This document shows positions 11,964-64,000 of a stretch of DNA of 64,000 bases, piece after piece (positions within the stretch are counted from its first letter, which is position 1; each line of letters opens with the position of its first letter). Source of the DNA: Podarcis tiliguerta. Taxonomy: Eukaryota. Both the position numbers and the translations under genes were made by a program. The stretch lies in the NCBI GenBank assembly GCA_965153285.1, contig OZ229110.1, one strand, 5' to 3'. The notes beneath the pieces were generated by a model that worked only from the letters and a program-made list of their open reading frames with translations, was not told where the DNA came from and ran no database searches.

Positions 11964-12010
<47 letters not shown>

Positions 12011-31839: not shown

Positions 31840-32904
31840 TATGGACTGAAATTTCTCCAAAGATTTCACAATACAGGCAAATTTTTCTTCATGTTCTTCA
31901 TTCTGGAGGGGGAGGTCAATGAAATATGTAACATCCATGTAATGTGAGCAAGACATTGTACATGATAAATGATCCCTTCAGAAGTAATCAAAGTGACAGT
32001 CATTACACGTAAAACAATACATTGCTACTGTCAGCTTTCACAATGATTTTTATAAAATTTCACCACTTGGCAAATGTAGATTCATGGCAGAGGTAAGAAT
32101 TTTAAATGAGATTTTCATTTCAAATTATGGGGCAATTAATTCAAAGGTCAACAAACAACACAATAACAAAAAATATTTAGAAGTAACCACAGAAGCAAAA
32201 ATAGTGGCTGATGTCTAACTGTGGTGTCCTACTTGTGCAACAAACTTTTGCTTGTACAAACTGGGCTTTCCCTTCTTTTCCTACCCAACCCCCAGCACAG
32301 CAAAAATTACACCTGGGATGCTCCAAAGCAGCAGAAGAAAAACATGAGTTCTTTGAGGAAAGATGTGATAACAAAACAGGGTTGTGCTGCTACCTAAACA
32401 TTAGCAGCAATTGCATCTGAAAATGTGTGTATAACCTAGCCAACCATTTCACCTGAACTGTATCACAAAATATGATTTTTACTCTGGCACTGTAGAACTT
32501 TAGAGCAGCATTACTATTAAATCACATAACTGGTATTCTAAATGCATGAAATTAACCTTAAGGAACAAGTTACTGATCGCAATCTTAAATTTGTTTTAAA
32601 GATTAAGGCATAAAGAACAATGTAACATACATTCTAAGGAATTATTCTGAGCTAGTTTGGAAAGTATCAATGATCTACTTAGTACAAGAAATGTAATAGT
32701 GTAGCAATTTTCCATTTGTTGAAATTTGTTAGTACATCAACACTAATATAAAACAAAATATTTACTCTAGAACAAATCCATTCAACTCCACCAATTGTAT
32801 TCCAGAGAAAGATGGCTCTAGGCTGTATTTACTGCCACTATCAGAGCTCTGTCACACACAACTGCAGAATCCACCAACCCTAAAGTACTTGTTATATTGT
32901 TTCC

Positions 32905-42131: not shown

Positions 42132-43381
42132 TTACTTTATAGACCTGTCCTTGACTGCTGAATGGGTGGCTTTTAAATCAACAGATGACATGTTTACACC
42201 AACAGGTGCCAACAAAGGCATCATCCTGGTGTTTTGCCTTCCTGAATCTAATAGGAAGCTTGCACTTTTTAGTCCAAAGGGTGCCAGTTTGGGCATGGGC
42301 TTCCACTGTGTGTCAAGGTGGCCGGGTTCCATATCAGTTTTCATCTGCAGAACTGGAAGAGACACATTTGTAGTTTTTGCCATGCATGGCACATTTCCCC
42401 AGCTTCTCCCACTAGTTGTTGAAATGTTACAATTTGGGTCCTTTACTTCAGAGTCCGGCATTAGATTGAAAACACCTGATTCAGATGAAGGATCTCTCAG
42501 GTTCCTGTCACTATTAGTGAGATCGTCGTCTTCCAACTGAAGCAGGAGTGGAGTTCCAGAACCACTACTCTCTTGCACAAAACAGAGGTCCTTATAGCTC
42601 TCACCCAATTTGCCAAACTGCAAGTGAAAGCCTTCTGCTGCTGCTGCAGCTGATACCGTGCAGTTTCCCATAACTTCCAGAGAAAACTCAGTGTTTGGGG
42701 AGTTGATAAGTTTTGATCTGTCTGGGGCCGCATCATTCAGCTGCTGATTGAGGGATACAATTTCATTCAGAAGTGAGGTGAGTGTTTCATCAGTGCCATC
42801 ATTCTTTAGGTCCATTAAGTCACTTGCATCCAGTGCTGGTTCAGGTATTGCAGAGGCTACTTTTTGCAGTTCCATTTCTACCCCGGAGTCCTTGAGTTCA
42901 TTAATCTGTAGCTTCTGAAACGAAGAATCCTTTGACTTTTGTCCCTCACCTCCCTTGTATATATCTTTTAACCTAACCCGATTTCCACTTAACTCTTCAA
43001 TGAAGAGTTTAGTTGCAAATAATTCTGGGGATCCCTTCATACTGGATACATTTACTATTTGTGGGAAACAGTTTTCTTTTTCCCTAAGAAAAACTTGAGC
43101 TGTTCCAGTAGCATCCCTCTGTTTTCTGGAAGATGGTTCCGCATTTCCTTCGGACTGAAAATCAGTTGTTTCCTGCAATACTATCTGCGTGGAAGGTAAG
43201 CATTTCTGGGAATCTGTATCCAGAGTTACATAAGGTTTCTTATTTAAATCCAGGAGTAAATTTGCATTTTCTTCAGTAGCCAGTGACACTACATTTACTA
43301 TTTGTATTTCCTTTGTATTTTCTTCAGTAGCCAGTGACATCACATTTACTATCCTTGGCATCATTAAGGAGTCTTCATTTT
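42132..43381 (-). CDS. MGA-B last coding exon
   Basis: CTTACAG|AA AAT GAA...MMPRIVNVMSL...TDETLTSLLNEIVSLNQQL...WKPMPKLAPFGLK; stop TAA at 42132. Confidence 0.92.
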
Positions 43382-46300
43382 CTGTAAGTAAGCCCAAACA
43401 AAGAAAGGCCTGTTAGAATACTGGTGAGAGAGGGAATGGGATTTAAAGAGCAACTTTTGGCATTGCTAAAGCCTGGGGGGATACTTGTAAGATTCCCAAG
43501 CTTCCCCCCCCCCCGAACGTATCATGGATCTGTCAAAAAAGATCCACCCAGTTTCAAAGGGGCTTGTTAAATAGCATGTGAGGCTGCTGTTTGAAAAGTA
43601 AAAGCCCAAAAGCTTTTATTCCATCTGAAAAACAGAAATGCTAACTATAAGAGATCAACTGCAAAAAAGAACAGAAGTGTCCTATATGATGATGAACCAA
43701 AACACAAATGTGGTGTAGTGGTTAAGAGCCAGTGTGGTGTAGTGGTTAAGAGCGGTAGACTTGTAACCTGGTGAACCGGGTTCGCATCCCCGCTCCTCCA
43801 CATGCAGCTGCTGGGTGACCTTGGGCCAATCACACTTCTCTGAAGTCTCTCAGCCCCACTCACCTCACAGAGTGTTTGTTGTGGGGGAGGAAGGGAAAGG
43901 AGATTGTTAGCTGCTTTGAGACTCCTTAGAGTAGTGATAAAGCGGGATATCAAATCCAAACTCTTCTTCTTCCTCCAAGTGGCAATTCACAAGCCACAAG
44001 AGCAGTGTGCAGAGCCACCTTATAGGAATCAGTATACCGTATTTTTCGCCCTATAAGACGCACATTTCCCCCTCCAAAAATGAAGGGGAAATGTATGTGC
44101 GCCTTATGGGGCAAATGCAGGCTCCTTGGCTTCAGCGATAGCAACGCGAAGCCTCCGAAGCCTGCGCTCCGGAGGCTTTGCGTTGCTTCCGCTGAAGCCA
44201 GGAGAGTCTGCTCTTTGAGGCTGGCCGTGGGGGAAAGCAGCGCTTCCCCCCTCGCCAGCCCCAAAGGATGGGGGGCAGCAGGAAGGCGCGCAACGCCTTC
44301 CTGCTACTCTCCATCCCGGCATTGAGGCTGGTGGGGGGGAAAGCAGCGCTTCCCCCCTCGCCAGCCCCAAAGGATGGGGGGCAGCAGGAAGGCGCGCGAC
44401 GCCATCCTGCTACTCTCCAACCATCCTGTGGGCTTTTGCGGGAGATGGGGGAATTCCCCTACCTCCCACAAAAGCAGGCAAAAGCCGTGCGCTCTTTAAA
44501 GGGGCTCCGCGGCTTCCGCTGGCTTTTCTAGGAGGTGGGGGAATTCCCACCTCCTAGGGAGGGAGTCCGTCCCTTCTCCCTCCTGTGGGCTTTTGCAGGA
44601 GATGGGGGAATTCCGCCACCTCCCGCAAAAGCAGGGAGAAGGTCTTGGAGTAGCGCACAGGCTGCGTGCAGCCTGTCCGCTGCTCCCAGAGCTGCGGGGG
44701 GGAAATCATATTTTTTTCCTTGATTTCCCCCCCTGAAAACTAGGTGCGTCCTATGGGCCGGTGCGTCCAATAGGGCGAAAAATACGGTAATTCTGCCCCT
44801 CCTGTCTCTCTCCCAGCCAAGCTGTTCACTCTAAGGAGATGCCTTTCTGCACCTCCCCAGGAACAGCCAGCCGCCTGTTCTTCCTTAGTTTCCCGTGTGT
44901 AGCTCTATGCCTTTCCTTTGAGTGAAAGGCTTGGGGTAGGATGCTGTATGCCTGGCAACGTGATGGCGGCCCCAAGCTGCCTTTTATGGGATGGCTCCAC
45001 ACACTTCTGCAAGCAAAACTAGACTTTGACTGTTTATTATTAGTGTGGGGGAAGGAGCTGCTACACTCAGGTACACATCAGATCTATGCTTCCCAGAATG
45101 CCCTGGGGATTTTGGTTTCACTTTGTATAAAAATCGCCTCCTTTCTGCAGCCTACCTGTGACACTGCTTCTGTTCTTGGAACATATTAATGGTTTCGTAT
45201 GCCTGTTGGACAGGATTACCGGTTTTGTCTCTCTAGAAAGAGAAAAGGGGCTATTTTCCACTGTGGAACTAGTAGTTCTTGCTGTTTTAATGATTTCCAC
45301 CATATCTTGCTGGTTCTGGTTCTCCTGCTTTTCTAGTGCCTTCTGCTTTGTAAAAATGTATTCTAGCTTCTTCAAGATCGCTTCCTGTGACTTGCCTACA
45401 GAGAAAACAAAGAGTTGGATATCCCTCACTTTGCAATTCAAAGGAACAAAAACACACATTAGCTCAAAATACAGTATTTCATAGTGCAAGATTAGTACCA
45501 TTTACAACGCACATGGCTCGCAAGGATATAGTTAGCAAGCAGAACATCTTTAATACCATTTGCGTCTTTGAAAGTATAATCCTTCGAATCCTACATGAAC
45601 AATTCATCCCAACCACTTTGAATCATCCTAGTATTCTCCTATGCTGGAATTTCTTTCTTCATCTACATGTTTTGTTTTGTTTATTTTTTTAAGAAAACCT
45701 GTCCATGGAGTCATCTCACCTGAGAGTGCAGACACTTTACGAATCAGGGTGTTGCGCTTGCACAACAGGAACTTCTTGTGGCTTGTCAATTGGTCTGCCT
45801 GATCTCTTAGCCTCTGGATATTTTCAGTGGCCTGGAAAGGGACGAAGAGGTCATTTTTACATTCCAGAGCAATACGGGGGGGGGGGGGGGGGACAGCTTC
45901 TCTTCTCTACTCTCAAAGCATCCTAAAAACAAAGCAATGACAGAAACTTTGCAGACATGTTAGCGAATCAGCTGCATTAAAAAATTAGGGCCTTTGTGTA
46001 TATTAGGATAGCAAGTTTCAGCTGGGGACAGAGGAGACAGGGCAAAAAATGCTATTGGTGGAAATAATTATCTTGGCAATTTGCCACTACAGTTAACTGG
46101 CTAATGTACTCAGAGAAAAAAGATTAAGCCAAATGCATTTGTCCAACATGGAGCTGAGTTGCTGTGGCACATTAGAAACCCCCATAAAAAAAAAAAATTG
46201 TATCTCTCTTTTCTATATCTTTCAATTTAAGATTTTTCATCTTGCTGCTGTTAAAAATCAAGTTCTCCTCTTGATGAAGAGGCATTTCCTTCCACATCGA

Positions 46301-49300
46301 GCTAAATGATGAACCATGTACCTGCTCAAGGAGGATGCGCTTGGCAATGCTGGGAGTGCTCTGCAATCCCAAGGCCCCCTGCAGTTTTTCAAAGAGTTCT
46401 TTCATTTCCTTACGCCGACGCTGTTCATCTGCTGTGTGTTTCGGCCGATAAGAAGTCATGCTTCGTGTCCAATTCTTTGGTTCTCTTTTCCAGAGTCCAG
46501 GCGGCTGTGGACAAGAAACAGCACTTTCACCAGACAGGGGGAAAAATGCAGTGACTGGTATAAATACTTGGGATTTTATATTATCTCCCAAACCTGGGCT
46601 TCTGCATGTCTCCACAAAGCTAGCCAGATGCTGGATGGGAATGCATGAATAAGCTAAACAGCTGTTTGGTTTTGAAGGTGCAACACTGGAAAACAAAGGA
46701 GCCACACAGGCTACTGTGCAGCAGCTAGGATTCTCACTTGGGTCACCAAGGGGAATGCGGAGAATGAAGAGAGCCTGAGTACCAATCCTGTCTCATGGCA
46801 CGCGCATAAAGCAAACAATGCCCTTAAGTAATTTAAAAAACAAAAACAACCCACTACCAGTCAATGTATACTTCAGCTGGAATACACACACCGCAAAGAC
46901 ACAACAGTAGAAAAGAAATGTATATTCACTTTAGGGGACGTTGCCATCACTTTATTTGAAGAGTCATGAGCAAGATGCCTAGAAGGATTTAAAAAGAGAA
47001 GTTGTGTTTAGTTGCACAAGTCATTCTGGCTCAGATAATAGCTTAACCTCAATCAAAACTGCAAGAAAACTTTCTTTGTGCTAAAAGGATCAGGAAGTTG
47101 TGCTCTGGTCACACAGGAAATGTCCCTGCTCTGTCCCCTCCTTCTGCTGTGCCCTTCTTGCTTTCTCACTCTGCTCTGCATGCTACTCAGTCTCTTGAAG
47201 TAAACAAATGAATGAACCAAAGGTTGCCTGAAACAGCACATCTTAGGCTCTTAGGACTCTCAAAAATATAATTTGAACTAACATACAAATTAAAGATGTC
47301 CTATATAGCCCCAATAAGCTGATAATATTTGTTATTTTTTAAAATTTAATCTTTGAGTACTAACATTAGTGATTAGGAAACAGTACATCAGCCTATTTGC
47401 CCATCTAGCCCAGGACTGGTCCCAGGCTGAGGTTTTCTGATCTCTTGATTCTTTTAAGTGGAGATGGCAAGAATCTTTTTCATACCAAGCAAGTGGTCTA
47501 CCATCAAGACAAGTTACCACGGAGTAAATTTAGCCTACAAGTGTGTACATCTTTGTATAAAGTCATAGCAGGAAGGAATTCCCACATTACAAATCAAGGT
47601 GCCCAGTCTGCTGTGTAGTTGCAGTTTCTTATGAGACATTAGATTTCTTTTCTCAATCAGTGAATCCAGCCCTTCAGCTATCTGCTTGATTACTCTGGGT
47701 TGGAAGAGGAAGGGCTCTGTAGAGGGGCCAAAAAGGGCTGAATTTAAGCTGTGGTTGCAAAGCTTGACGTTCTACATTGTATCCTTGAAAAGTGGTTCAG
47801 AGGGCAGGCCACCTTTCCAGCCGAAATGGTTCCCCAGTCCCGTCCTAAAGGCTATGAGCTAAGTTAATTAAAATTAAAATTAATTCATTCTGCGAGTTTT
47901 TTCGTCTTGCGAAGCACCACTGTGTATTGACGGTTTCCCATAGGAATGCATTGGCGGGGTTTTTTAAAAAGGCGCAAGAAGTTTCGTCTTGCGAAGCAAG
48001 CCCATAGGGAAATCCGTCTTGCGAAGCAACTCAGAAAATGAAAAACTCTTTCGTCTTGCGAGGTACCACTGTATTTTATAAAGAGCTTCTGGGTGATGCA
48101 TCATTGCAAAGTCTCACTGTGTGAACCAAATAAACCACACAGCAGAGCCTTGGTCTGCATTAAAAGTAACTATATCTGCTAGACATAATAAAAAATAGCA
48201 CGATGCTAAAAATCCATTTGCTGGTGTGTCTTTGTTGTTGTTGTTGTTTAAAAAAAACTTGCTTACAACTGTCTGGGAAGTAGGGCATGAGCTGCTGTAG
48301 TTTTCAGGTGAGAAATAATACTTTTCTTTTTAAACTCTTCAGGTTCAGTATTCATTTTCTTGTCACCTTGACTGGAGTCCCTTCCATTCTGAAACAGAAC
48401 ATTAAAAAGGCAGTTAAACTCAGTCCTGCAGAGAAGCTCCAGTCAGGTAATGTTTCATTTCAAACTCAGAATGTGGTGTGTTTCTTCCTTGTGCTAGCAG
48501 AGAGGAGGCAACCAGCAAAGGCAGGTGTGTTCATGGTAAACCATTGGCTATGGTATATTGTGACATGGAAACTGGCCTATTGCTCAAACATTAATACTCA
48601 GGGTATAACTGAAGAATGGTAATAAAGACCATTGTTTTAATGTAAAGTTGCAAAAACTTGTTAAGGTGTATAATTATTTAACTTTGGTGTTCTGAAGATT
48701 AAGTAACAAATTGAGTCTTACCAATTGAGAAGTATCACCTGCAGCTTCTTCAGGACAGTTAACATGATGCTCCTTGTTGTGCATCGCTGTAATGCTATAG
48801 GTGTGGTCTAACGATACAGCATCGGGATGGAAGATGGGAGAATCACTGGATAATTGCTCTACAATTTCGGCATACTTTTTGACCATCTCTGAAGTAGTAG
48901 CACTACTCTCACATATGATACTTTCAGAATGGAAATCTGATGGATGTGCTGGCAACTTATTTTCTTTTAATTTGGTATTGTATATTGTGATTTCTGACTC
49001 TTTGGCCTCCACCGTTTTCAAATGTGGTATTTTTTCTTCCAGCTTGACAGAACTGCACTCTCCTTTCCAATTGGTATTCTTTACCTGGAGGGATACAACA
49101 TGATGGACAGTGGAGTTTGGAACGTTTTTCAGCTCTGGAAACTGAACTACTGTAGTTAGCCTAATACCACAAAACAAAACTCATCTATGGCATTTGTCAA
49201 GACTCCATACACTCCAATTTCTGACTGAGTCATGAAAATATTTACACACTTTTTAACCAAAGAGGAAGTTAAATTCTCAACAACAAAATTTTTGCAAGAA

Positions 49301-52300
49301 GTTCAAATTCTGTGAGGAAAGCAAGTCTGGGTGGTAAAACTGGAGAAATTAGTATAAAGAGAAGTTAAGGAAAGGCAAACAGTAGAAATTTTACGCACAC
49401 ACCTTGGACCCAAAGATCCAAGGCAAGTGACGGCAGTAATCTCAATTGGTCACAGTGGTTCGCAAATAAATTGTGTTATAGTAAAAACATTTTGCTGCCA
49501 GATCTGTTTTACAAATTAAAGCAGTGTGGGATGCTCACCAGTGTTTCAGTCTGGTGGTCAGAACTCCCATCAATATCTTCCTCTGCAGAATCATCTGTTT
49601 TTTCACCATTTCCTATATCATCCTTGGTGATACCAAATGACATAGGACCATTTTTCCAATAGTTGGTTTTAGATGCATTTTTTCCTAAGCATTTAGCAAC
49701 TGGATTCTGGGATGATTTGCTCCAAGTTCTGTTGGGCTCAGCAAGGTCATCCTTAAAAGCTTGATTCTCTCCCCGTAAACCAGAAAGACCTTTTTTATAG
49801 CAAGAAACATTACAGTTCTCCTGAACATTAGCACTACTGTTAGGAAGATATTCTTGGGCACTATCCACACACTTCTTTCCTGGTGTGTAATTCTGGTCCC
49901 TTGTGCAGCAGATCTCAAGCTCTCCTCTCTCTGTTTCCTTGACATTTTCTATTTGCATGGAGTCACCCCTCTCTTTCCAGTGCCTCCTTAGCAGTTCAAA
50001 GTCATGTTGATTTTGCTGCCGACTCTGAAGCAATTTGGCCCTTTTCTGCTGCTGCTTTTCGGTATGGCTCATGCTTATAATCCGCTGCAGTTTACCAAAC
50101 AACGTTGGCTGTGTCTGCTTAGGTCCTTCCGAATCAGTCATGGGCCTTTGCATTTGGGCAGTGTGTGTTTGCTCCCCATTTGAACATTTCATATGCGGAG
50201 CCTCTTCCTGACGTGTGGGGCTTTTCTGCAATGTATCACACACAGGAACGTCAGTTTGCAAACCATCTTCAGCCTCATCTGACATACCTTCAAGGTACCT
50301 CCCATGCTGCTTCTCACTGCTCACAGTCACTTTAACTGTCTTACTTGGCTTCCTGCAAACATATGAATGGTCTGCCAATATCGCGTCTGATGGAATGTCA
50401 GGATGCAATAAAGGTTCCCCACTTAATAATTCTCCCCCTGCATCCACGTCGTCTGGAACAGTCTTTGTAGCAGTTGCACTTTTGTCAGGAATAAACATGT
50501 CCCCTTCTTCCTTCACCCGCAATGGCAAATCCGTAACAGCTTGGTCTGGCTCTGCACTACAGACTGCTGAAGGAAAGATAACAAGCAGCTTTAATGCTCT
50601 AATCAATGGAATAGCAGCGAGAAGAACCGAAGCAAATCCTGTGCTGTTCATTTTACCTCTAGTAAATAATAAACTAGGCAAAAGCGGGGAAAGGAGCAAC
50701 AAGTAGGAGCGAAGGTGACATCACAAGACTCCAATTGATATCAAAGTGGGGGAAAGCAAGAGCTTTGAAATTTAGCGCAACAAAGGAGACACTGAAAGTG
50801 GCATTCTTTTTGAAATCATTCCATTACCCATCCTCAGTCATGAGTGGTGTTTGTTTTGTAGCCCATGAGGGAAGGGAGGGATCCGTGTGCTTAGGGGTTC
50901 CCTGAAGTATGCAGATGCCAAAAAAACTGAAGGGAAAAAATGAAAGGTGTTTTAAAGGCTTCGTAAGGACTGTGAATGTGCACAGCACACGAAGAAGAAT
51001 AAAATATCAAAACAATCTTAAAACATCCTTCTACATACATCAAGGTCATGAGAAGTAAAACACGCATGGCTCCATCGCCCACTCAATTACCTTGGGATGC
51101 CTCTAACTGCTCAGGCCATTTCCTACTTTATCACTGTTTCCTTAGCAACCAGGCCTTCAACAGGGTTGTCGACATTCCCGTCCCTATCTGTTCCTTGGAA
51201 ACTTTCAAGGAGATGCCGGATTTCACTCAAAACAGACATAGCAAAACACCCTGAGTGACCATCTGTGGCACTTTCAGGGTCAGATAGGAAAGGAATGCAG
51301 CGTAGGAGTCATAAAAGACAGGAAAACCAAATCAAGCCTAATACATTCTAGCCAAAGGTTCAAGACAATCAGTATTGGAATTTTTATTTTTTTTAAGAAA
51401 GGACACCCTGATGTAATTCTTACATCAGCACCATTGCCATTCTAAGAGAACAAGGGAGGTGCTCATGGCGAGTTCGGGCGCCTCTTTTCCCATAAAAATA
51501 GCACTGTAAATAGGCCCTTGTGTTGCAGGTCCAGCATATATATATATATATGGATGGATAAGCCCATCGCAAAGAGTAACATGACAATTGTACGTGCATC
51601 CTTTCATGTGGGAGACAGGGGAGGAAAGACTGAAACATGCAATAAGCGGCAGTACCCTCAGTGGTGAAAAGCATCCTAAACGGAGCAAGAGAAAAGGTAG
51701 GGGAAATCCATGCCACAGAGATGGATGGGAGGGCAGAGTGGATGAAATTTGTAGGATGACTGGGTGCTCACCCATGGGAGGAAGCCAGGAGTGTAAGGGT
51801 TCAGCACTAAAGGGTGCCAGTACGGCAGATGTTGGAGGAACAGTCCTCTAATTCACTGCTGATCACAGAAACTTAAAAGGCAGGCATGGCACCTTCTCTG
51901 TCCCTCCACCCTCATCTAAGACTAAAAAAAGAAGACGTAGCGAGTGACATTTAGAAATCCATGACTCCCCTAGCAAGGATATTCTGAACACACATGTAAA
52001 ACAGAAATGGAACCATATCACTGAAATAACGTCAGGTCACCACACCAGCCTGGTTCACACATCATGGTAAACCAAACCATGGCTTAGAATGAACGTGTGA
52101 GTGCTCCAAAAGCAGCTTATTTATCCCCAACCTAAGATAGTCCATACACACATAAATTTGGTAAAAAAAACCCCAACCAGCAACAAAGCACACAAACACA
52201 CAGGGTGTGACGGGACGAAAAAAGCACATAAAAGGGGGAGGGGAGTCAAAAGAAATAATAATAAGATGTTTTACCAGAGAAACAATGGCAACATTTTGTT

Positions 52301-55300
52301 GCAGTTTCCATTTATATTTGATAACAGTAAGTGAAGATTTAACACACCTGGATAGTCCAGAATGTTTATTCAGCAAACTCTCAGAAAAAAAGGTTTTGAA
52401 AATGTTTTGAACGCTTTTCTAGTAAGACTTACATTCATCGTTGCTTCTCATCTGTTTATTAACATGCTCCAGTTTCCAATCCCTTTTTCCGTTGCAGCAT
52501 TCAATAATTTCACATAAATATTTTTTCAAGCTTTTCTTGTGCACAGAAACTCCCTTTAACAGGGCCACCCTTTTCTTCAGACAATCAAATGTGCAATCTG
52601 TCTTGCAGGAAAGTGTAGGCTGGCACATCCCAGAAGCTAAACTAGCACAGACACACCCAAGCTGGCAGGTGCCACTGTGTGCTGGATCTTGGCTGCTGGT
52701 TATCTTACAGGTAGGCTTGCTTTTGAGTGAAGGCTGAAAGAATATACAAATATGTATCTCAAGAACCTACAAGAACCTACAAACAACAGATTTTGAACAA
52801 ACGTAAGGTATAAGATCAATTACACAACACTTTATGATACATAATTTATACCTTGTCCTCAACTGGATGGTATAAAAATGCACAAAAGATGAAGGGAAAC
52901 AGGATTGTACCCCGTGTGTAACAGAAAGTGAAAACTAACATCCAATAGCCTTTTAAAACACAGAACATGGAAGCATTAATGTTCAAGATTATCAGGGGGG
53001 GGAAGCGGACTGTTCTGTGCAATTTTCATTTGTTTCTTCTGTTCTTAATACTGTTTAGAGTCTGATCACAGAAGTTCTTCTAAGCAGGCTAAAAGCAAGC
53101 CAATTTGATCATCATTCTGCAAGCAGCAGTCTTGCTTAGGGTTCCACAAGGGTCATTCACTAGACTGTTGGTTCAGAATTGCAAAGAAGTCTTGCGAGAC
53201 TCGCCAGACACTTTTTGTTGAATAAAATGGATTTGTCTTGTGCATGGGAACATTAGAATCCTACCTCCCCCCAGCAATGGTCTTTTATAGGACATTAACG
53301 CAAATAAAGTGTAATTATAAGAAGAGCGTGCTGCAGCAGGCCAACAGCCCATCTAGTCCAGCTTCCTATTCTCACAGTGGCCAACAAGATGCCCGTGAAA
53401 AAATGTGCAAGCAGGAGCCAAGTACAAGAGCATTCTTTCCCATCTGTGGTTTCCAGCAACTGGTGCTCAGAAGCATTACTGTACAGTCATGCCTCGGGTT
53501 ACAGATGCTTCAGGTTGCATTTTTTCGGGTTACGGATCCGCCGAAACCCAGAAGTACCAGAAAGGGTTACTTTCGGGTTTCGGTGGCCATGTATATGTAG
53601 AAGCGCTAAATCACGCTTTGCGCATGCGCAGAAATGCCAAATTGCAACCCGTGCGTGCACAGACACGGCACTGCAGGTTGCAAACGCTGCGGGTTGCGAA
53701 CGTGCCTCCCGCACAGATTGTTCGCAACCCAAGCATCCACTGTACTGCCTCCACAGCTGTGGAGACAAAGCACAGCTATCATGGCGAGAAGGCAATGACA
53801 GCCTTTTCCTCCGTGAGAGTTACAAAGGAAGGCAAAGGACGCGGCCATTTCAACTTACCTGAGGGCTAAGCAGAGATGCTAGAGATAGGTCTGCTCGCTC
53901 TTTGGTAATGCAAGTCCGTGGCTTCCCATTCTGCAATGCACGACCTTCCAATTCCATTAACTCCACCGGAACCTGCTTATAAATGAATTAATGTCACCAC
54001 AATTTTACCTGAATCTGAGCACAGAGTATCAACTCTCTGTATATATATATTGCACATAGTGATATTTGGTCCTGCTCCTACTCAGACTAAACCTTTTGAA
54101 ATTCATGGACATTACTAACTTAGGTTCGTATATTTCAATGGGTCTACTGTGAGCCAGACGTCACCTGAATACAAGCCTAAATTGGTTTAGAAATGTGAAA
54201 ACAAATCCCAGAAGTTACAGGTCACACACCGTGAACTTATGAATAATTCTAATGCATGAAGACAATAGAGGTTCCTTTCTTTTCTTACGCTAATCTTACT
54301 CTGCCAGTTACATTGCATGTGAAACAGAATTAAGAAATCCTAATGGCCCATTTGAATTTTGCAGATGATCTGCAAGGACATGGTGGTGAAATAAAAATGG
54401 ACATGTTTTGCCTTGTAATTTCTGAATGTAACTTCTTTACTATGCAGCAGATATGTATACTGAGTTATGTATTTCTCTTTGTTTTTCATGCTTTTTCCAA
54501 AAACCAATGACATATACCTTCCCCACCTCCTGCAAAATAGTCAAAAAAGGATTGCAAAAGAAAAATGACTTGTGAGTGCGTGGGTCCATTTCTAGCATAT
54601 GCATATCTAACCAACGACTAAATGGTAAAGATTATTGAAGCTTACCTGAGAGACGATCAAAGTATCCAGAGAAAGGTCTGCCCATTCTTCAGTAATACAG
54701 GTTTGTGGCTTCCCATCCCTCAAAGCACAATCCTCCAGCTCCATCAGTTTCATCTGAGATAAATGCAGTGGTGGACAGCTACTCTGTTTTGGCTGCTGTG
54801 CTTGACGCACAGTTATTTGCTTTCTCTGTATGTTTCCATCTAATTCTGGCACATGAACATCGTCATCCACTTGGCTATATGATCTAGACCTATTGATGTT
54901 CTCTAAGGCAGAGAAATCATGCTCCTGCTTTGCCAGAACAGGTAAAGGCACTGTAAACTTTTTGGAAGATTTTACCCTGCCTCGAAAAGTTGTTTGTTTA
55001 TTCTTAGTTTTTCTTCTCCTTCTAAAAACGGAAGGCAGAGAAAGAGGCTTGAAAGCATAAGTGCTGGATGGAGTAATGATGGGTTTCTTCTCTGGAACTT
55101 TATTGAGGGCTTGAGCACAGCTGGTACCTTTGGACGGAATCCGGCAATCCATGGGATAACTAAACAAGCTTGAAGAGAATCCCGCACTTTCCATTAGCTT
55201 CCCTTCCCTTTCCAAATATTTGTCCAGTTTATCGCTGCAGAAGGCAGATCGGTTCTTCAGTGAGTCCTCTAAAATGCTACCTGAATTAATCCAGAAAATG

Positions 55301-58300
55301 ACATAGAGAAAGAAGTCAAGCACAACCTCTGAAAATACATCAATCCCAGTTCCGGCAGAAAAGGAAACTCACAAAAGTTTATCTAAAAATTCTCAAAAGA
55401 TCTCCTTTTCTGCAGCATCACGAAGGGAAAATATATACAAAATCAATGCCCTACCTTCCTGCTTAGAAGTGTTGTTAAGTCTTCCTTGCCAGCCTTTTAT
55501 CTTTCTAAAATCATTGGTTTTCCCAGTCTTGGAAATGAAGGAAAGGGCGGTATCTAGAAATGAAGGTAGCAAAGCAAGTTTATTAACGAGGCACAATATT
55601 CCTATCTATAAACAACGGTATATATATTCAACTAAAAACTAATTATCACATGCATTTGCTGTAAGGGGTACTCAACAAGTGACAAGGGCCAGAGTAATAG
55701 CGAAGTTAATTCACCAAAAATTCCTTCTAGAAAATAATAACTAAAATAAGAACAGTCACGTCCTTCATTCCCAGAGGGCTCTACAGTTGCACATACTATA
55801 GAGAGCACTCCATTTTCCTCCAGAGATGAACCTTAGCCTTCTTCCCAAACTTGGATCTAGAGAAAGGGGAGACAGGAGTTTCCCTACAGCTGCCTAGCAC
55901 TTCGGAACACGGCTGTATGAAGCCCAGTACAGCTGCAAGTACGATCTCTCTCAAGCTTTAAGGTTGGGAAGAAATCTGGGGGTTGTTTTGGTGTTCCACC
56001 TCCACAGCACTCCAAACACCTCAAAAATATGGTGGCAAAATGTATGTACCCCCCACAAAGTCTCATCTGAACAGTCAGACCTAACAATGCACAATTTACA
56101 TAATTTATAGCTTTGTTCTATACTGTTTGCATCGTGCGGTGATAATGTAATTTACTAAGACAATGGTTGTACATAGAAAATACAATGAATGGGTTTTTTA
56201 AAAAAGTTTGCAAACCAACAAGCCCCAGCCTTGCTTTCTGGAGTTGGGAGTGCTGAGACTGCTGTCTGCCATGAAGTTTCAAGCTCCAGTCTTCCTCTCC
56301 AGCAGGAACTAGAAAGGGGGACACAGACTGCCCTCTCCATTGCTTCCAAGACTCTCTGAAATGCAACTGTGCGGACAACATATCCTGCCATCTCCCTGTC
56401 CCAAGCTGGAGAAGAGGGCCAGAATATTCCCACAGGCTGGAACTCAGATGGAGAGCATGGGTTGTGCCTGACCTCGTTCTGTGATGCAGCATAAGGTCAG
56501 AAGTGAAACCCCATGACTTGTGAAGTGAAACTCTCATAATATCTGGCTGGCCAACAAAGGGCAGCCGGGTCTTATGGACTCTGCTTACCATTCTAACATT
56601 TCAAAAAGATACATTATATTTACCTTGACAACTGAGATCTGTCACTTGGTTTTCCCCAAATACATAATCCTTTGAAGGTCTCAGGGGAAGCTGCACACCC
56701 AAATATTTCAGGTCAATGCTAAGTGTTGGGTCCACGGAAACCAACTTCAGCCCCACTAGAAGAAGAATACCCATGTTAGAGATCTTTAAAAGCATGAAGA
56801 AAGGCAGGGTGGCCAGTGGTTGCCAAACTAGCACACATGAAAGTCTTTGCGGGCAGGCCTCCCAAACTGAGCTTTCGTAAATGTCTCTAGCCCTCTTAAA
56901 AAGAAAGGTATAAAACAAAACGTGTACTCTTCTAAGTAATTCATTTGAAATGAGTCACCATGGCTCCTCCTACCTCTCAGTGTTTTTGGCCAAGGAGCAA
57001 GTCAGAGCTGTGATTGATAAGTGAGTTGTTTAGACACCAGGCAGCAGGAATCCATGGGTCCTAAAGAGTTGCTGTTTCACTTCCTATACACAGTCGTACC
57101 TTGGTACTTGAACACCTTGGTACTCGGACGTTTTGGCTCCTGAACGCCGCAAACCCGGAAATGAGTGTTCCGGTTTGTGAACATTTTTCGGAAGCCGAAC
57201 ATCCAACGCGGCTTCCAATTGAGTGCAGGAAGCTCCTGCAGCCAATCGGAAGCCGCACCTTGGTTTTCGAACCATTTCAGGAGTCGAACGGACTCCTAGA
57301 ACAGATTAAGTTCAACAACCAAGGTATGACTGTAGTGTAGTTTTCCTGCTCCCGTCTTATTTTCTAATGAAATATCCTTAGTTTGTCTTTTGTTTTAACC
57401 TAGCAACAAGGATGCACCTTTCTTATAGGGTGTTTGTCTGATTCTGTAGACCCTAGGAGTTATTTTCTGCAAATACTACAGCAAATAAGAGTGGGTAGAC
57501 ATTAAATATCCCTACTTCCTCGAAAAGGCAAATGTGAAAACTTCACAAAGAGGTTGAGGTCTGCTGTACAGGAACTAAAAACCTGACATTCATTAAGAAT
57601 TTGCTGAATAGTTAACTTAAAGCACAATGGTATTTAAGCCTACTCAGAAGTAAGTTTCTGTGTTTACTGGAGCTTACTCTTGGGTAAGTGGGTTCACTGA
57701 TAGCAGCCTAGGCTTTGATTTAGGCTTGGCATTTGAGAAAAACATGGTTCTTGTGATGGGCAGAAATTCAGGTAAAGCCTTTTCTAGTATGGAAATGCAA
57801 TTATTATAAGAGCTTCACTGCGCCAGTACTCTCCAGTTTGGGTTGTGTCATGCTCCCCACATCAGCCATTTCATGACTGGTGCCCCCAGCACTCTCAAAA
57901 TTCGAAATGTGCTACTAGTTTAAAAAGGTTGGCGACCTCTGAGAGAATCTATAAGCCACCAACTCCCTCAAGCACAGGTGAAGGGCTCTAATACGAATGT
58001 GGGCAGCATTCATTAATACAGTGGTACCTTGGTTTACGAACCTAATCCGTTCTGGAAGTCCGTTCTTAAACCAAAGCATTCTTAAACCAAGACATGCTTT
58101 CCCATAGCAGTGGGGGGCTCAATTTACAAATGGAACACACTCAACAGGAAGCGGGTCATGTTCTGCTTCCAAGGCAAAGTTCACAAACCAAAACACCACT
58201 TCCCGGTTTGCAGCATTCTTAATCCAAGTTGTTCATAAACTAAGCTGTTCTTAAACCAAGGTACCACTGTACAATGCATCAAAGTTTAGCTGAATAGACC

Positions 58301-61300
58301 ACAGAGAACACACATGAGAAACAATATCTGAATACTATGTTCTAAGGGCGATATCAAACTAAACCGTTCTGTACAGCTCAGTCACTTCTGGCTGTACAGT
58401 GGAACTCCCCTCTCCCCTCTCTGTATTCCCCTGAAATCGGTTATGGTTCTCCCTCAACCCTTCAGAACATTTTGTTTGGGGTGGCATGAAGAGAGGAGAG
58501 GGACGAGAAGTTATGTTGCACGGCCAAAACTGTGCTAGCCGAACTGTTTTGTTAGATGCTGCTCTAGATAACTATCACAGCAGCTGCGGAATCTATTGCT
58601 GATAACATACCTTCTTGAAGACTAGGATGTATCACTTGTCTGTGCCTGAACGACTTCAAATCTTCTAAGAGCTTTGTTTCCAGAAGTTGTAGGTTTATTT
58701 GAGAGTCTGTCATAGAACAAAAAAGTATTATTGACACATACAAATACAAAAAAAGTGTATCACATTCTAACATACAAATGGTAAGAATGTGATACACTTT
58801 AAAAAAACAAAAAACCTACTGTTTGCTTAGCAGTCTTAATTTCTCCTGCACTAAGGCGGCCCCATCAGTGTCAAGAGTACCTGAATCATATGTAGTCAGG
58901 AAGGAAGCTTCTCCATTCTGTAGTCCTTCTCTTCCCCCAATTTTATCAAGTCTGTGTTTATCAAGAACTTCCTGTACATAAAGAGGGACTACAATAAGTG
59001 TTAAATGCTTAAGCAAAAGTGGCCTAGACACCCTACCAAGAGTCAAATTAATCTTAACAAGATTTAATACATACTAGAGCTGAATAAAATGGTCTGGATT
59101 TTAAATTCTGCATGATCACATACAAAAGGCAAGGTCACAAGTACATAAAAAGAACACCCTGCTGATTCGACCAGCGGCCTATCTTGTCTAGTGTGCTGGA
59201 TGCCTATGAAAAGCCCAAATGCACACTTCCCCTGATATTGGAGTTAATATATAAGTCATTAACATCGCCTTCTCCTCCACAAATTCACCCTTTTAAAGCC
59301 ATCCACACTGACAGCCATCACTTCATCTTGTAACAGAAAATTCCATTGTTTTTACTATGTACTGAATGAAAAAGTATTTCCTTTTGTCTGCCTTGAATCT
59401 TCCCACATTGAGCATCATTGGATTGCTCTGGGTTCTAAGTATTCTGAGAGGGAGAAAGAAGTCTGCCTGTCCACTTCTCCACACTATAATTTTTACACAC
59501 ACCCATCACATCCCTTCTTAACCCATGTTTTTACTAGACTAAAAGCCCCAAATGTTGTAACTTATCAGTGAGCTGCCACAGTCCCCACTTTGGTTGCCCT
59601 TTCCCAACTCTGTAGCATCCTTCTTGAGGTGCGAACACAACCGTACACAGAACTCTCCAAATACGGTTGCATCACAGGTTTATAGAAAAGGATTATGGCA
59701 CTGACAATTTTATTTTTTATTCCTTTCCTGATGATACCCAACATGGTCTAGACACTCACATTCAGAGCTATTGAAACTGAAGAGCGTGAGCGTCAAAGCA
59801 TAGAGGTCCCGCCACCCCAAACCTGCAATTTTCACAATTAAAAAAAGAAATGCACATTTAGCTTTCAATCTGTCTAGTATAAACTATGCTAGACAATATT
59901 AAATTTAAATGAAAGATTTACCTTTGATGCAAAGGATGCAAAGAGGACTCCATCTATATCCTCGTAATCAAGCACGAGCTCTGGCTTGGCAAAATCTGGT
60001 CCCACATTGCTTGTCATAGCAGACTTTGCTGTGAATTTCAGGGATGGTTCAGTCTCAATCACTTTACGTGGTCTTCCTCTTTTAGGTGGACCAAACAACA
60101 CATAATCTGCTTTCTTATCAAGACCCCTTCCCAACACAGCCTTCTTGACTACATTTTTCTCTTTTCTTCCATGAATAAATTTGGTTGACGTAGGGGGCAA
60201 GAGGTTGAAACTCATTGCTTTTTTTGTTACCATATGGCTGCTGTATGTTTCAGTATTTATCCATTGCGCATCTTTGCCCAAATAACATTTCTCTGTGTTA
60301 TTGCTTCTGAAATGAAGTTCTTTATGTTTTGCTTCCACAACTTTAAGCGGGCTAGCTAGTTTGTTATTTTCAAAACAGACAGGCAAAGAATTTACTGAAT
60401 GATTATTCAAAGAAGACTTCTGTGTCTTATAAGAAGACAAAAGAGCTTCAAGAACAGAGATGGTCATATTCTTGGTGGTACCACAGCACTTTAAGGAGGC
60501 ATCAGGCACTGTCCCACTACCCAATTTTAAAGTTTTGTCTTTGGCAACGCTCTGTGGTTGCTTGTGGGATTCAAGGTCCACTTCTCTTCTTCCTATTTCA
60601 TCACAGTTTTTCTCCAACTGTGTCTCTGAAATCTTGTTTCTATCTCTACAGAAATATTTTTCTGTTGCTTTATCAGTGCCTTCCCGGTTCATGAGTATCC
60701 TCTCTGTATGTACCCTTGGCCCATAAACATAGTAATCTACAGGCTTATCTTTAATGGATATACGGATATCATCATTTGAGTTCAGCTGTGATTTCACACG
60801 GGAATCCCTTTCACAAGCTGTTGGACTGGAGAAAGGAAAACAAAAACTAGATCAATGTAATTGCAGAAATTAAATAATATCCTAATAAATTTATTTTGTC
60901 CAGTTTATCATGCATTTGTATAAAAATTATGTATCTGTTATTGCTAAGTAATGCAAAACCCTAATGGCTGTGCAGTTTATATATAGCTTTAGCAGCTTCC
61001 ATTACTAGTGTGAAAGTAAATCAGCCTTCCTTTATCCATCAATCAATACATACATCATTCAGGTTATCTGTGATACCATATATATTTTCTAAAGCAATAC
61101 ATTTGCTGGATGAAGAGTTTGGATTTGATATCCTGCTTTATCACTATCCTAAGGAGTCTCAAAGCGGCTAACAATCTCCTTTTCCCCTCCTCCCCCACAA
61201 CAAACACTCTGTGAGATGAGCGAGGCTGAGAGACTTCATAGAAATGTGACTAGCCCAAGGTCACCCAGCAGCTGCATGTGGAGGAGCGGGGACACGAACC

Positions 61301-63781
61301 CAGTTCAACAGATTACAAGTCCACCGCTCTTAACCATTACACCACACTGGCTCTCTGGATGCTATAGTCTCTCTGGATGCTATAAACTCAAACCAAGTTT
61401 TATTTTAGTGTCACAAAATTATTTCCTTCTGTATTCCCATCTTCTTTTGGTTGATTTGGAAGTACCGTAAGTTCCAATGAGACCTTCTCCCAATTAAGCA
61501 TGCATAGAATTTTGGCCTCATGTACCTACCTGGAAATAATTACTTTTAAATAAGTATGCATAGAATGGGACTGACTGCCAGCTTTAGTTTAGAATTTACA
61601 GTGGTACCTCAGGTTACAGACGCTTCAGGTTACAGACTCCACTAACCCAGAAATATTACCTCGGGTTAAGAACTTTGCTTCAGGATGAGAACAGAAATCG
61701 TGCGGTGGCGGTGCAGCGGCAGCCGGAGGCCCCATTAGCTAAAGTGGTACCTCAGGTTAAGAACAGTTTCAGTTTAAGAACAGACCTCCGGAACAAATTA
61801 AGTTCTTAACCCGAGGTACCACTGTATTTATTTAAATCAGAGATGGGGAACTTTTTTGATCCCACAGGTCAGATTTTGACCTGGCCACACCCTGTGGATC
61901 AATTTTGACATATGGGCAGGACAACCTACCTGTCAATCTCAGGACACTTGTATGATGCCACATGATTGATAGGTGGGTCATCCTGCCCACCTGTCAAAAT
62001 CACTTACACTGGGTTCCGAAGCGCCCAACAGTCAGCTGGGAACTGACTCCAATTCTGCATGCTATCGGCAGTGATAACAGATACAAATAGCATCAAAGGA
62101 ATGACATAAGCACACTTAGCACTAAGTGAGTCAGAAAGCGGTGCAGGGAGGCCAGGGCACTCACTGGTGGGGAAGATCTCATCTGCAGGCTTAATATGGC
62201 CCAAAACACATCTCCAAAATACCCAACCAAGCCATTTCTAATAAATTTCACCCATCCATCAAACGGCATCATGTGACATCTTCTATCAACCATTTTGAAC
62301 TGCCTACCACATGCCACAGCTTTCCTTGGGATCGCCATAAAAATTATGTATTCTACATACAGTTCCCACAACACTAAGAGCAGCAAAGATTACCAACATG
62401 GGGCTGGAATGGTTACAACATTTTGGGTGTTTAAGTGTAGGGAAAACGTAGGGGACACACACACACACACACACACAAGATAAAAGCCTATAAAATTTTG
62501 CATGGTTTGGGGCTATCCAATGAAACTGAATATAGAATGGCCCCAAACCATTTAGGACACAGCACATAGTTAAACTATGAAATTTGTTACCATGAAGTGT
62601 AGCAATGGCCACCAACTTGCATGGCTTTAAGAGGATTAGACAAATACATAGAGGACAAGTTTATCAATGGCTACCAGCAATGATCGCTGTGTTCTACGTC
62701 CACCATCACAGGCAGTAAGCCTCCAATTACCAGTTGATGGGAATCACTCATCCCCAATAATGATAGATATGTAACTGTACCATTCAGACGCATCACATTT
62801 TGTGTCTGGAGTAAATGTTTCTTTCTCCAAAGAAGTTTTATACATCTTCCAAGCATTACATGAAGCATCTAGGTCTCTTTGCTTTGGATCCAAAACATCA
62901 CCTTCAGTGAGACACCTGTAACTGCTTGTAAAGTTAGAAACTCTACGTCTTTTCTGCTCTGGGCAATCATTTTGCATTGCCTTATGTTCAGGTCTGCTGC
63001 TCAGACCAGCTTTCTTGAACCCTTTGAGAAATGGGTTGTAGTCTATTTTCAGTTGTGTCATTTGTATGTTTTGATAGGCAGTCACAGCAAAGAACTCTGT
63101 CTGTGGGAAAATGAAGGTATGGACATCAGGACCATTTAGCTGAATAACCTCTGTGACTCTGTCAGCAAGCACCAAGTGTAGCCGAGGTAGATAGCGGTGC
63201 ATAGAGTGCAGAATGATATGCCCTTCCTGGTCCAAGGTATTGTTAGTAAGTTTGAGTTTGTAGAAGGAGACTGGTTGGTGCATCCAGTAACGGCCAGTAG
63301 AAGGTGATTCGGGGTGAATGAATACTCTTCCCAGCACATGGGGTTCTGCTTTCCCACTGGGCTCCCAACTATGGCCATTCCATTTATAGCGTAAGTTGTC
63401 AACTGGAGAAATATCCATGACCAAGATATACTTCAGCTTGGAGTCTAAGCCTGTTATCCAGTATCGACAGTATGGAAACATCCGCCTTCCCTGCTTAGTC
63501 AGAATCATTTCTGTGCCGCGATAGTAGAACTCATTCCACATATTGTTGTTGTCCAAGGTAACAGTAATGCTTCCTGAGGTGCAATCTGCTGGAAGGCAGG
63601 TCTTCACTTTCGATTTTACTGGTGCTGCAAGGCCATTGTCCTCTTGATTTGAAACGAAGTGTCCTTGGTCAGCTTTTCCAGTGATCTGCGGCTGTTTCAT
63701 GAGAACGTAAAGAGCAGGCACTTTACCCAACGCCTTTCCACCATCCTCATTCCCAAAGGCCATTGGTTGCTTCTTCATCAT
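42132..63781 (-). CDS. MGA copy B, remodelled MGA-like paralog (~2258 aa, spliced)
   Basis: 17 coding exons traced, all GT-AG and phase-compatible, totalling 6777 nt with no internal stop. Retains T-box, AT-hook, degenerate Cys-rich region, bHLH-ZIP and C-terminus. Confidence 0.88.
43709..43973 (+). mobile_element. Squam3-type tRNA-derived SINE
   Basis: TGGTGTAGTGGTTAAGAGC A box (duplicated), GGTTCGCATCC B box and (CTT)n tail; matches the inverted copy at 61112-61355. Confidence 0.88.
44037..44786. mobile_element. Non-autonomous Tc1/mariner-type DNA transposon
   Basis: TIR CCGTATTTTTCGCCCTAT...ATAGGGCGAAAAATACGG, TA on both sides; GC-rich interior with a ~105-bp internal repeat. Confidence 0.9.
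45156..45395 (-). CDS. MGA-B exon 22 homolog
   Basis: GKSQEAILKKLEYIFTKQ...KPLICSK; 240 nt, the same as A. Confidence 0.9.
45720..45831 (-). CDS. MGA-B exon 21 homolog (helix 2/zipper)
   Basis: ATENIQRLRDQADQLTSHKKFLLCKRNTLIRKVSALSG; 112 nt, GT-AG. Confidence 0.91.
46322..46504 (-). CDS. MGA-B exon 20 homolog (bHLH basic region/helix 1)
   Basis: YRPKHTADEQRRRKEMKELFEKLQGALGL; CCACAG|CCG ... CAG|GTACAT. Confidence 0.9.
46930..46978 (-). CDS. MGA-B exon 19 homolog
   Basis: CCTTCTAG|G HLAHDSSNKVMATSPK|GTGAAT; phase 2 to 0; resembles A's NSVHDHSSQKTPK. Confidence 0.75.
47890..48071. mobile_element. Partial pogo/Tigger-like MITE
   Basis: Repeated CGTCTTGCGAAGC subterminal motifs ending in GAGGTACCACTG|TA; left end not evident. 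Confidence 0.65.
48267..48388 (-). CDS. MGA-B exon 18 homolog
   Basis: NGRDSSQGDKKMNTEPEEFKKKSIISHLKTTAAHALLPRQ; TTTCAG|AAT ... TT|GTAAGC (phase 2, as in A). Confidence 0.86.
48722..49141 (-). CDS. MGA-B novel exon derived from the middle of ancestral exon 17
   Basis: 420-nt open phase 0-0 segment FPELKNVPNSTVHHVVSLQ...SLDHTY..., homologous to A ~9460-9800. Donor TTG|GTAAGA; the choice among clustered AG acceptors is uncertain. Confidence 0.7.
49539..50566 (-). CDS. MGA-B fused exon (5' of exon 10 + 3' part of exon 17)
   Basis: Begins SVCSAEPDQAVTDLPLRVKEEGDM (A exon 10: TICGTEPEKPVKNFPLWVKVDGEM) and ends EKTDDSAEE...ETL|GTGAGC (A exon 17 end); phase 1 to 0. Confidence 0.87.
52433..52733 (-). 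CDS. MGA-B exon 9 homolog (degenerate Cys-rich region)
   Basis: PSLKSKP...TCQLGCVCASLA...DCTFDCLKKRVALLK; GT-AG, phase 0 to 1. Confidence 0.88.
53316..53812 (-). mobile_element. CR1-type LINE 3' fragment interrupted by a MITE
   Basis: ATAAGAAGAGCGTGCTG...CCCATCTAGTCCAGC...CAGTGGCCAAC typical of an antisense CR1 3' end; resumes after 53744. Confidence 0.6.
53484..53742. mobile_element. pogo/Tigger-like MITE (same family as 5784-6014, opposite orientation)
   Basis: TA|CAGTCATGCCTCGGGTT...AACCCAAGCATCCACTG|TA. Confidence 0.82.
53859..53972 (-). CDS. MGA-B novel exon 8b (duplicate of exon 8 3' end)
   Basis: AAGCAG|VPVELMELEGRALQNGKPRTCITKERADLSLASLLSPQ|GTAAGT; 114 nt, phase 0-0. Confidence 0.78.
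54646..55280 (-). CDS. MGA-B exon 8 homolog
   Basis: GSILEDSLKNRSAFCSDKLDKYLEREGKLME...DGKPQTCITEEWADLSL; GT-AG. Confidence 0.92.
55455..55553 (-). CDS. MGA-B exon 7 homolog
   Basis: TALSFISKTGKTNDFRKIKGWQGRL; 99 nt. Confidence 0.91.
56624..56755 (-). CDS. MGA-B exon 6 homolog
   Basis: VGLKLVSVDPTLSIDLKYLGVQLPL; 132 nt. Confidence 0.92.
57091..57332. mobile_element. pogo/Tigger-like MITE
   Basis: CAGTCGTACCTTGGT...ACCAAGGTATGACTG|TA termini. Confidence 0.8.
58019..58269. mobile_element. pogo/Tigger-like MITE
   Basis: Perfect TIR CAGTGGTACCTTGGTTTA/TAAACCAAGGTACCACTG with TA on both sides. Confidence 0.9.
58611..58706 (-). CDS. MGA-B exon 5 homolog
   Basis: LETKLLEDLKSFRHRQVIHPSLQE; 96 nt, GT-AG. 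Confidence 0.9.
58881..58971 (-). CDS. MGA-B exon 4 homolog
   Basis: EVLDKHRLDKIGGREGLQNGEASFLTTYDS; 91 nt, phase 0 to 1. Confidence 0.85.
59150..59740 (-). mobile_element. Old CR1-like LINE fragment
   Basis: Decayed antisense CR1 motifs (CAGCCATCACTTCATC...GTATTTCCTTTTGTCTG...TGGTTGCCCTTT). Confidence 0.6.
59922..60825 (-). CDS. MGA-B exon 3 homolog (AT-hook)
   Basis: CPTACERDSRVKSQL...PPKRGRPRK...YEDIDGVLFASFASK|GTAAAT. Confidence 0.91.
61112..61355 (-). mobile_element. Squam3-type SINE, full length
   Basis: Reverse complement of the 43709 element from GAGAGCCAGTGTGG to its tail; possible CTGGATG target-site duplication. Confidence 0.88.
61599..61824. mobile_element. pogo/Tigger-like MITE
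   Basis: TA|CAGTGGTACCTCAGGTTA...TAACCCGAGGTACCACTG|TA. Confidence 0.88.
62545..62748 (+). mobile_element. CR1-like LINE 3' fragment
   Basis: CACAGCACATAGTTAAACTATG...GGATTAGACAAATACATAGAGG resembles a CR1 3' region. Confidence 0.55.
62781..63781 (-). CDS. MGA-B exon 2, coding part (T-box domain)
   Basis: MMKKQPMAFGNEDGG...complete T-box...NPFLKGFKK; donor TG|GTACAG (phase 2, as in A); likely acceptor at 63852. Confidence 0.94.
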
Positions 63782-64000
63782 GTACAGTGTTGTAAATTAT
63801 CATATCAACTCCGAAGTTGCAAGAGTTCTGACAGCCTTTCCCTCATGGCCACCTTGTTAAGAAACAACAAAATACACAATAAATATTTGCAGAGAAAAAG
63901 TAGACTTGAAATAAGAACATAAGTGGAGAAGGAAAGCACATGTGATTTCAGCAGCATGCCCCAACCCATACACATTTAACCATAGTTTAGTTTAACCTAG

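Follow-up and report, generated by a model that had tools for sequence, protein, structure and literature searches.

Two trimmed copies of one MGA exon in swapped order within a tandem MGA paralog of lizards

The window analyzed here, a stretch of 64,000 nucleotides from Podarcis tiliguerta (assembly GCA_965153285.1, contig OZ229110.1), contains two MGA genes arranged head to tail, both on the - strand. The coding part of gene A, which is MGA itself, occupies 1..31977, with a last exon that extends past the window into L004. Paralog B lies upstream of A in the window, at 42135..63796, and encodes an MGA-like protein of ~2,230 aa with an intact T-box, a weak bHLH and no MGA_dom hit. The named proteins nearest to B are Podarcis models termed 'MAX gene-associated protein-like', with identities of 94-97% in exon X and 92-99% in exon Y, the two exons with which this analysis is mainly concerned. 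The T-box of B (PF00907, intronless) is present with an E value of 5e-70 in P0001 (Pfam), and its exon is one open frame, 63796-62747. The bHLH domain (PF00010) reaches 19.5-19.9 bits in three of the four B proteins examined, against a cut-off of 20.7 and a score of 35.7 in A, and the fourth, from Elgaria, gives no PF00010 match. Given this divergence, E-box binding or MAX pairing of B may differ from that of A. The bHLH of B, at ~46500-46320 and 45830-45719, is diverged, and Elgaria B is changed in the basic region. The MGA conserved domain (PF16059) is matched by A and by none of the four B proteins, though a diverged exon homologous to the PF16059 region is still present in B. With an intact T-box, a borderline bHLH and no PF16059 match, B is a derived MGA paralog and not a canonical MGA. 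A tree on the upstream part places the B clade as sister to squamate A with support of 100/100. The existence of a third MGA copy was considered and rejected, as genome G000 gives just two Y matches and two near-identical T-boxes and the upstream flank L003 gives no match.

The T-box exons of B (63785-62868) and A (31846-30917) have 89% DNA identity, and the domain protein has 96%. In the T-box tree A pairs with B inside the lineage in all four lineages, a topology that points to repeated gene conversion homogenizing the T-box of the two genes, with B still distinct at the domain end. Several other features of these genes were observed. B contains a second internal partial duplicate (53965-53852 vs 54744-54641), in which an exon tail is repeated as a small exon; it is found in the lacertid, Elgaria and Hemicordylus models and is single in the gecko model. 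The last exon of B (~43390-43300) carries a short lacertid tandem repeat of a VNVxSLATEE stretch, with a 51-nt skip in run X18. The GC-rich sequence at 45000-44000 is a cluster of inverted and tandem repeats within the last intron of B, and that at 35000-33700 is CpG-island-like and is located at the likely promoter of A. Two MGA models from other species, P0033 (Pterocles, 3525 aa) and P0040 (Tiliqua, 3664 aa), are unusually long, which may result from internal duplications or read-through.

The two exons of interest in B are both homologous to the large exon of A, which is intact at 8589..10603 (- strand) and is labeled exon 17 here after the number given to it in the earlier note on this DNA. 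Exon X (49539..50566, - strand), the first copy, comprises the 3' part of exon 17 and has kept the original donor; it is 26% identical to A (E 9e-24). This donor homolog, at 49539, precedes exon Y in the transcript and has the same context as the A donor at 8589. Exon Y (48722..49084, - strand; 363 nt, 121 codons, phase 0/0) is the second copy, a trimmed one that covers the exon 17 interior, and the part of A matched by Y together with an intronic remnant beside it is 9802-9400. The earlier note had reported that the segment past the donor homolog matches the exon 17 interior and that its tail duplicates the DHxY region, and both statements are borne out. The open frame 49180-48677 (-) has 40% identity to the large exon of A (ORF 10643-8556, aa 280-394; E 8e-23), the DNA alignment of 49084-48747 to 9749-9400 scores 175, the highest score among shuffles being 41 (0/200 shuffles), and the tail of Y overlaps the DHxY region of X with 27% identity over 66 aa (E 7e-05). 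As read from these alignments, the order within the exon is swapped in B, with X (the 3' part) followed by Y (the upstream interior).

Splicing was evaluated with contigs of four runs from four related organisms over 42000-57000, the runs being presumed to be RNA; joints at exon boundaries, among the 15 listed of 79, were used as splicing evidence. The joint 49539>49084 is found in X2, X17 and X18 (organisms B, C and D), i.e. in 3/4 runs, where raw positions of 49082/49537 were read as 49084/49539 after the cut was moved by +2 (CT..AC). The joint 48722>48388 (raw 48389/48724) is likewise found in three of the four runs, X1, X17 and X18, and connects Y with exon Z (48267..48388, - strand), the homolog of the next exon of A (~7084-6960). 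These joints confirm the use of the donor that had been proposed as new (TTG|GTAAGA), with GTAAGA at 48716..48721 (- strand) in former coding sequence, and Y is spliced in frame at GT-AG sites. Y-type segments of the cordylid, the gecko and two other records share the end position in the alignment, and the indel observed within Y is 15 nt and in frame. A single X18 contig spans 50566-49537 and 49082-48724, i.e. X with Y together, and the two exons are not mutually exclusive, being joined in this contig and in 27/27 gene models. Contigs of X1 are without cover over X and most upstream exons. An X-skipping isoform (donor near 52434 to the AG at 49150, in frame) is absent from the annotated isoforms. 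Run X2 also has an unspliced contig across the X-Y intron (49436-49056) at a depth of 92, above exon depth, which may be a retained intron, an alternative start or a contig artefact.

The 5' boundary of Y had been placed at 49141, giving an exon of 49141-48722, and here the earlier proposal has to be corrected, as the contigs and all 27 annotated B proteins join 49539 to 49084 instead and the 57 nt that had been counted as exon (49141-49085) are intronic in both. The used acceptor AG, assigned from the joint and the pyrimidine fraction, is at 49085..49086 (- strand) and was part of a CAG (Gln) codon in the former reading frame. The suggestion that the acceptor was recruited from a former Gln codon consequently holds for its origin and fails for its position, which is 49085 and not 49142. 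The pyrimidine fraction is 0.73 before the used acceptor vs 0.50 at the 49142 site. An acceptor at 49142 was rejected on the basis of this weaker tract, its absence among the 15 of 79 joints listed and the fact that 0/27 annotated B proteins carry the remnant; rare use of 49141, with a coding remnant, may occur. The remnant itself (49087..49146, - strand) is duplicated sequence that is intronic and still open, with 39/51 nt identical to A 9802-9752, and its aligned part (49146-49096) matches A above shuffles (0/200). It has 12 differences from A in 48 nt, and the four 3'-most AGs of the A copy are gone (by eye). Loss of the four AGs nearest the acceptor is as expected for a branch-point region, and the remnant likely provides both the branch point and the pyrimidine tract. 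Apart from the remnant, the introns of B around X and Y have no similarity to gene A above shuffles.

To place this structure in a wider set of genomes, we searched with a profile built from A, X and Y, which returned 13 proteins, and with the full-length Elgaria protein, for which 120 of 1,683 matches were listed. Queries with Y and with X among proteins of at most 2,000 aa gave no match, a result that is uninformative given this size limit. X followed by Y with the 49539>49084 junction is found in every annotated B protein (27/27), representing three species of Podarcis together with Lacerta, Zootoca, Elgaria (Anguidae) and Hemicordylus (Cordylidae), seven species in all. Conservation of the frame in relatives, which had been suggested as a check, is thereby observed as the same order and junction in lacertids, an anguid and a cordylid. 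The opposite outcome, an exon always skipped and disrupted in relatives, is contradicted by the spliced contigs and by the conserved models in distant relatives. Y has 48% identity to its counterparts in both Elgaria and Hemicordylus and X has 49% and 43%, and Y is conserved to the same degree as X. The lacertid, anguid and cordylid families separated approximately 170-190 million years ago, and the duplication event is ancient rather than recent. Exon Y is almost certainly real, spliced and ancient, and the claim that the permuted exon has stayed open and is used is upheld by the spliced contigs and the annotated proteins. In the gecko Euleptes, the B model (P0092) contains the Y-type copy alone with the native upstream part, and this copy has the same short deletion past the motif and the same end as other Y copies; X must have been either lost in the gecko or missed by the gene model. 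Gecko B as an independent duplicate passes the test on the T-box and C-terminus (p 0.30, no rejection), but the upstream part places it within the B clade at 100/100, and this origin was discarded. For snakes and iguanians, no B was present among the matches listed.

Exon X has its own history of trimming. It has tandem acceptors at 50566 and 50563, and its 5' end (50496..50566, - strand) comes from another, earlier exon along with the acceptor of that exon, A 19055-18972 (exon 9 by our own count), to which it aligns with a score of 68 against a shuffle maximum of 28 (0/500). B of Elgaria and Hemicordylus retains this earlier exon, and the fusion at 50566-50496, which arose through a further deletion, is lacertid-specific. 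The fusion also removed an extra EHxY, which is present in Elgaria and Hemicordylus B and absent there in turtle MGA. X of Hemicordylus and Elgaria seems to start with the native exon 17 start (by eye; E 0.1), and the internal stretches lost from the two differ in length. The untrimmed extent of the Y-homologous part is greatest in Hemicordylus X, smaller in Elgaria X and least in lacertid X. One further record, P0008, is an X-type open frame that groups with X (100/100) and in which the Y-homologous part is still present, and it represents the intermediate state between duplication and trimming. The trimming of X was stepwise and separate in each lineage, and DHxY was spared every time. The earlier note had invoked duplication of exon 17 followed by complementary deletions; duplication and subsequent trimming are supported, P0008 included, and a single event is not, as X lengths differ by lineage.

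The region shared by the two copies centers on a short motif. The DHxY of exon Y reads DHTY (48797..48808, - strand) and that of exon X reads DHSY (50361..50372, - strand), and each is a predicted binding motif for the co-regulator HCF-1 on the basis of sequence, invariant columns and the published consensus. At the corresponding site of A (9473-9462) the sequence reads GRSY and the motif is lost. Within the X/Y overlap, D, H and Y alone are invariant (3/41 ungapped columns; 10 X- and Y-type rows), and the count with turtles and birds added is 3/43. DHxY is kept in 16/16 B-type segments, in all five turtle and bird MGAs and in 7/17 squamate A rows, and in none of the five A rows of species with a two-copy B. 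Its loss in A involved different substitutions, and these five species represent three lineages. Five squamate A rows are without the motif though B is absent among the 120 matches listed of 1,683, and gorilla MGA (P0011) has no D/EHxY motif.

D/EHxY is given as the HCF-1-binding consensus in the accessible portion of PMC2814863. A binding screen, to the extent that its preprint is available, favours peptides in which H-4 is hydrophobic, x is small, Y+1 carries no charge and Y+2 is not Pro (bioRxiv 10.64898/2026.03.19.712392), and the sequences of the X and Y motifs both satisfy these favoured flanks. In the same portion of the preprint, HCF-1 was bound by just 66/347 human D/EHxY peptides, and MGA goes unmentioned (bioRxiv 10.64898/2026.03.19.712392). 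The predicted motifs of B probably do bind HCF-1. Ahead of the bHLH, the X/Y region likely forms a disordered linker; there is no Pfam domain in either exon, and disorder was judged by a composition proxy only. In a disordered linker order would matter little and the motifs would be what selection sees, and B likely retains Y because of the second predicted HCF-1 docking motif that it adds. That B is a mosaic of two duplications differing in age, whose seam left it with two docking motifs, and that it took over HCF-1 recruitment from MGA, with the parent losing the motif independently in several families, is a speculative extension that we consider rather doubtful.

The origin of Y was evaluated by estimating, on a fixed tree with 60 bootstraps per part, how much of the squamate stem falls after the A/B split. 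This share is 0.27 (0.21-0.35) for the upstream part and 0.20-0.22 for X, and it is 0.03 (0-0.11) for Y, 0.03 for the bHLH region and 0.12 for the last exon; the intervals of the last exon (0.07-0.20) and of X (0.14-0.28) overlap. The same pattern was obtained under a second model. From Y onward B looks younger than it does up to and including X, and such a step in age at the X|Y seam is expected if the 3' end of B came from a younger A copy. The trees, which are built on one hand-chosen protein per species and in which the B rows are long branches, place X as sister to all squamate A (97/95) and Y with the 3' exons in an open fork with A. For Y columns alone, a topology with X and Y as sisters is slightly better, by 0.9-1.5 log units. 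When every column of exon 17 is used, 'Y with A' comes out best in 5/6 runs and the sister tree is not rejected (p-AU 0.21-0.58; p 0.33). A late transfer of X from non-gecko A was rejected, 'X with A' failing in 6/6 joint tests (p 0.018-0.030) and X being sister at 97/95. The two-age pattern favours a chimeric gene, and Y may descend from a more recent duplicate of gene A and not from B's own exon, which would amend the origin proposed in the earlier note.

The best reading overall, to which we assign a probability of roughly 0.55, is that Y came from a younger A duplicate joined behind an older exon 17 and was kept for its second predicted HCF-1 motif. Such a history would begin with a tandem duplication of MGA on the squamate stem. 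The 3' end of the old copy would then have been replaced from A, either through unequal crossing-over or through a long conversion, and a replacement beginning inside or before exon 17 would leave two exon-17 copies in one gene. The second copy would have acquired first a donor just past DHxY and subsequently an acceptor where a Gln codon had been, and the first copy would have lost its 5' part stepwise in each lineage with DHxY spared.

The most serious competitor to this chimeric origin is a plain tandem duplication of exon 17 within B followed by trimming, in which the apparent youth of the 3' part reflects rate differences or patchy conversion by A. This account is rejected in no tree test and is slightly preferred on the Y columns alone, and it finds a parallel in the other internal partial duplicate of B (53965-53852 vs 54744-54641). 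Conversion between A and B does occur, and their exchange at the T-box supports a chimera, yet it could blur a plain duplication too. Against a duplication confined to B stand the stems of A and of B, both of which shorten right at the X|Y junction with no recovery further downstream, and the fact that 'Y with A' is best in 5/6 joint tests; we regard it as a distinct possibility that falls short of probable.

It is also conceivable, and in our view unlikely, that Y is spliced but merely tolerated as filler in a disordered linker and that DHxY is unrelated to HCF-1, serving another partner or none. About half of the Y residues have changed between families, X and Y are without a Pfam domain, and the majority of consensus peptides do not bind in the screen (bioRxiv 10.64898/2026.03.19.712392), all of which would suit filler. 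Such a role is difficult to reconcile with D, H and Y as the sole invariant overlap columns even when turtles and birds are included (3/43), and with a motif that was spared by the trimming of both copies. The notion that Y is no more than an intronic relic in decay, or an error of the assembly, can draw on the unspliced contigs that run X2 also has over the Y flanks, but it is rendered extremely improbable by spliced junctions in four organisms, an open frame and the same structure in seven species with independent assemblies.

B provides a clean vertebrate case of swapped within-exon order with intermediates still present in databases, namely one X frame without trimming, other X copies trimmed in part, and the Y-only model of the gecko. 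The overlap kept by both copies points to one short motif and predicts a link between MGA and HCF-1 in reptiles and birds. A squamate MGA paralog with a T-box repeatedly homogenized with its parent will mislead orthology calls. If the transfer of HCF-1 recruitment is true, there would be a division of labour between MGA and its paralog at one four-residue motif.

Mga (MAX gene-associated), a transcription factor with a T-box and a bHLH-Zip, is described as single-copy in human and mouse in the accessible part of PMC3177325. B resembles MGA in its T-box, its borderline bHLH, its C-terminal exon and its exon order save exon 17. B differs from MGA in being ~1,000 aa shorter with most middle exons missing, in having no MGA_dom hit and a weaker bHLH score, and in its two exon-17 copies of swapped order. 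Orthologs of B are already present in RefSeq/GenBank as XP_028579336.2 (Podarcis muralis), XP_062973753.1 (Elgaria), XP_053139957.1 (Hemicordylus) and XP_033001569.1 (Lacerta). These 'MAX gene-associated protein-like' models already include Y with the 49539>49084 junction; they are automatic annotation and are silent on the swapped order, the doubled motif and the two ages. A search of the literature, mostly outside subscription journals, found no paper dealing with a paralog of MGA in squamates or with a DHxY motif in MGA. Compared with known systems using the HCF-1 motif D/EHxY, the B motifs fit the consensus and its favoured flanks, and for MGA the interaction is predicted only. Permutation by duplication and deletion, tandem exon duplication and the formation of chimeras by unequal crossing-over are general mechanisms. 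The mechanisms are already known, as is the exon from automatic gene models. B shares with these general cases the complementary loss after duplication and the new splice sites in old coding sequence. It differs from them in that the rearrangement concerns a single exon in a large gene, the copies are included together and not alternatively, and the overlap that was kept is a short motif and not a folded domain.
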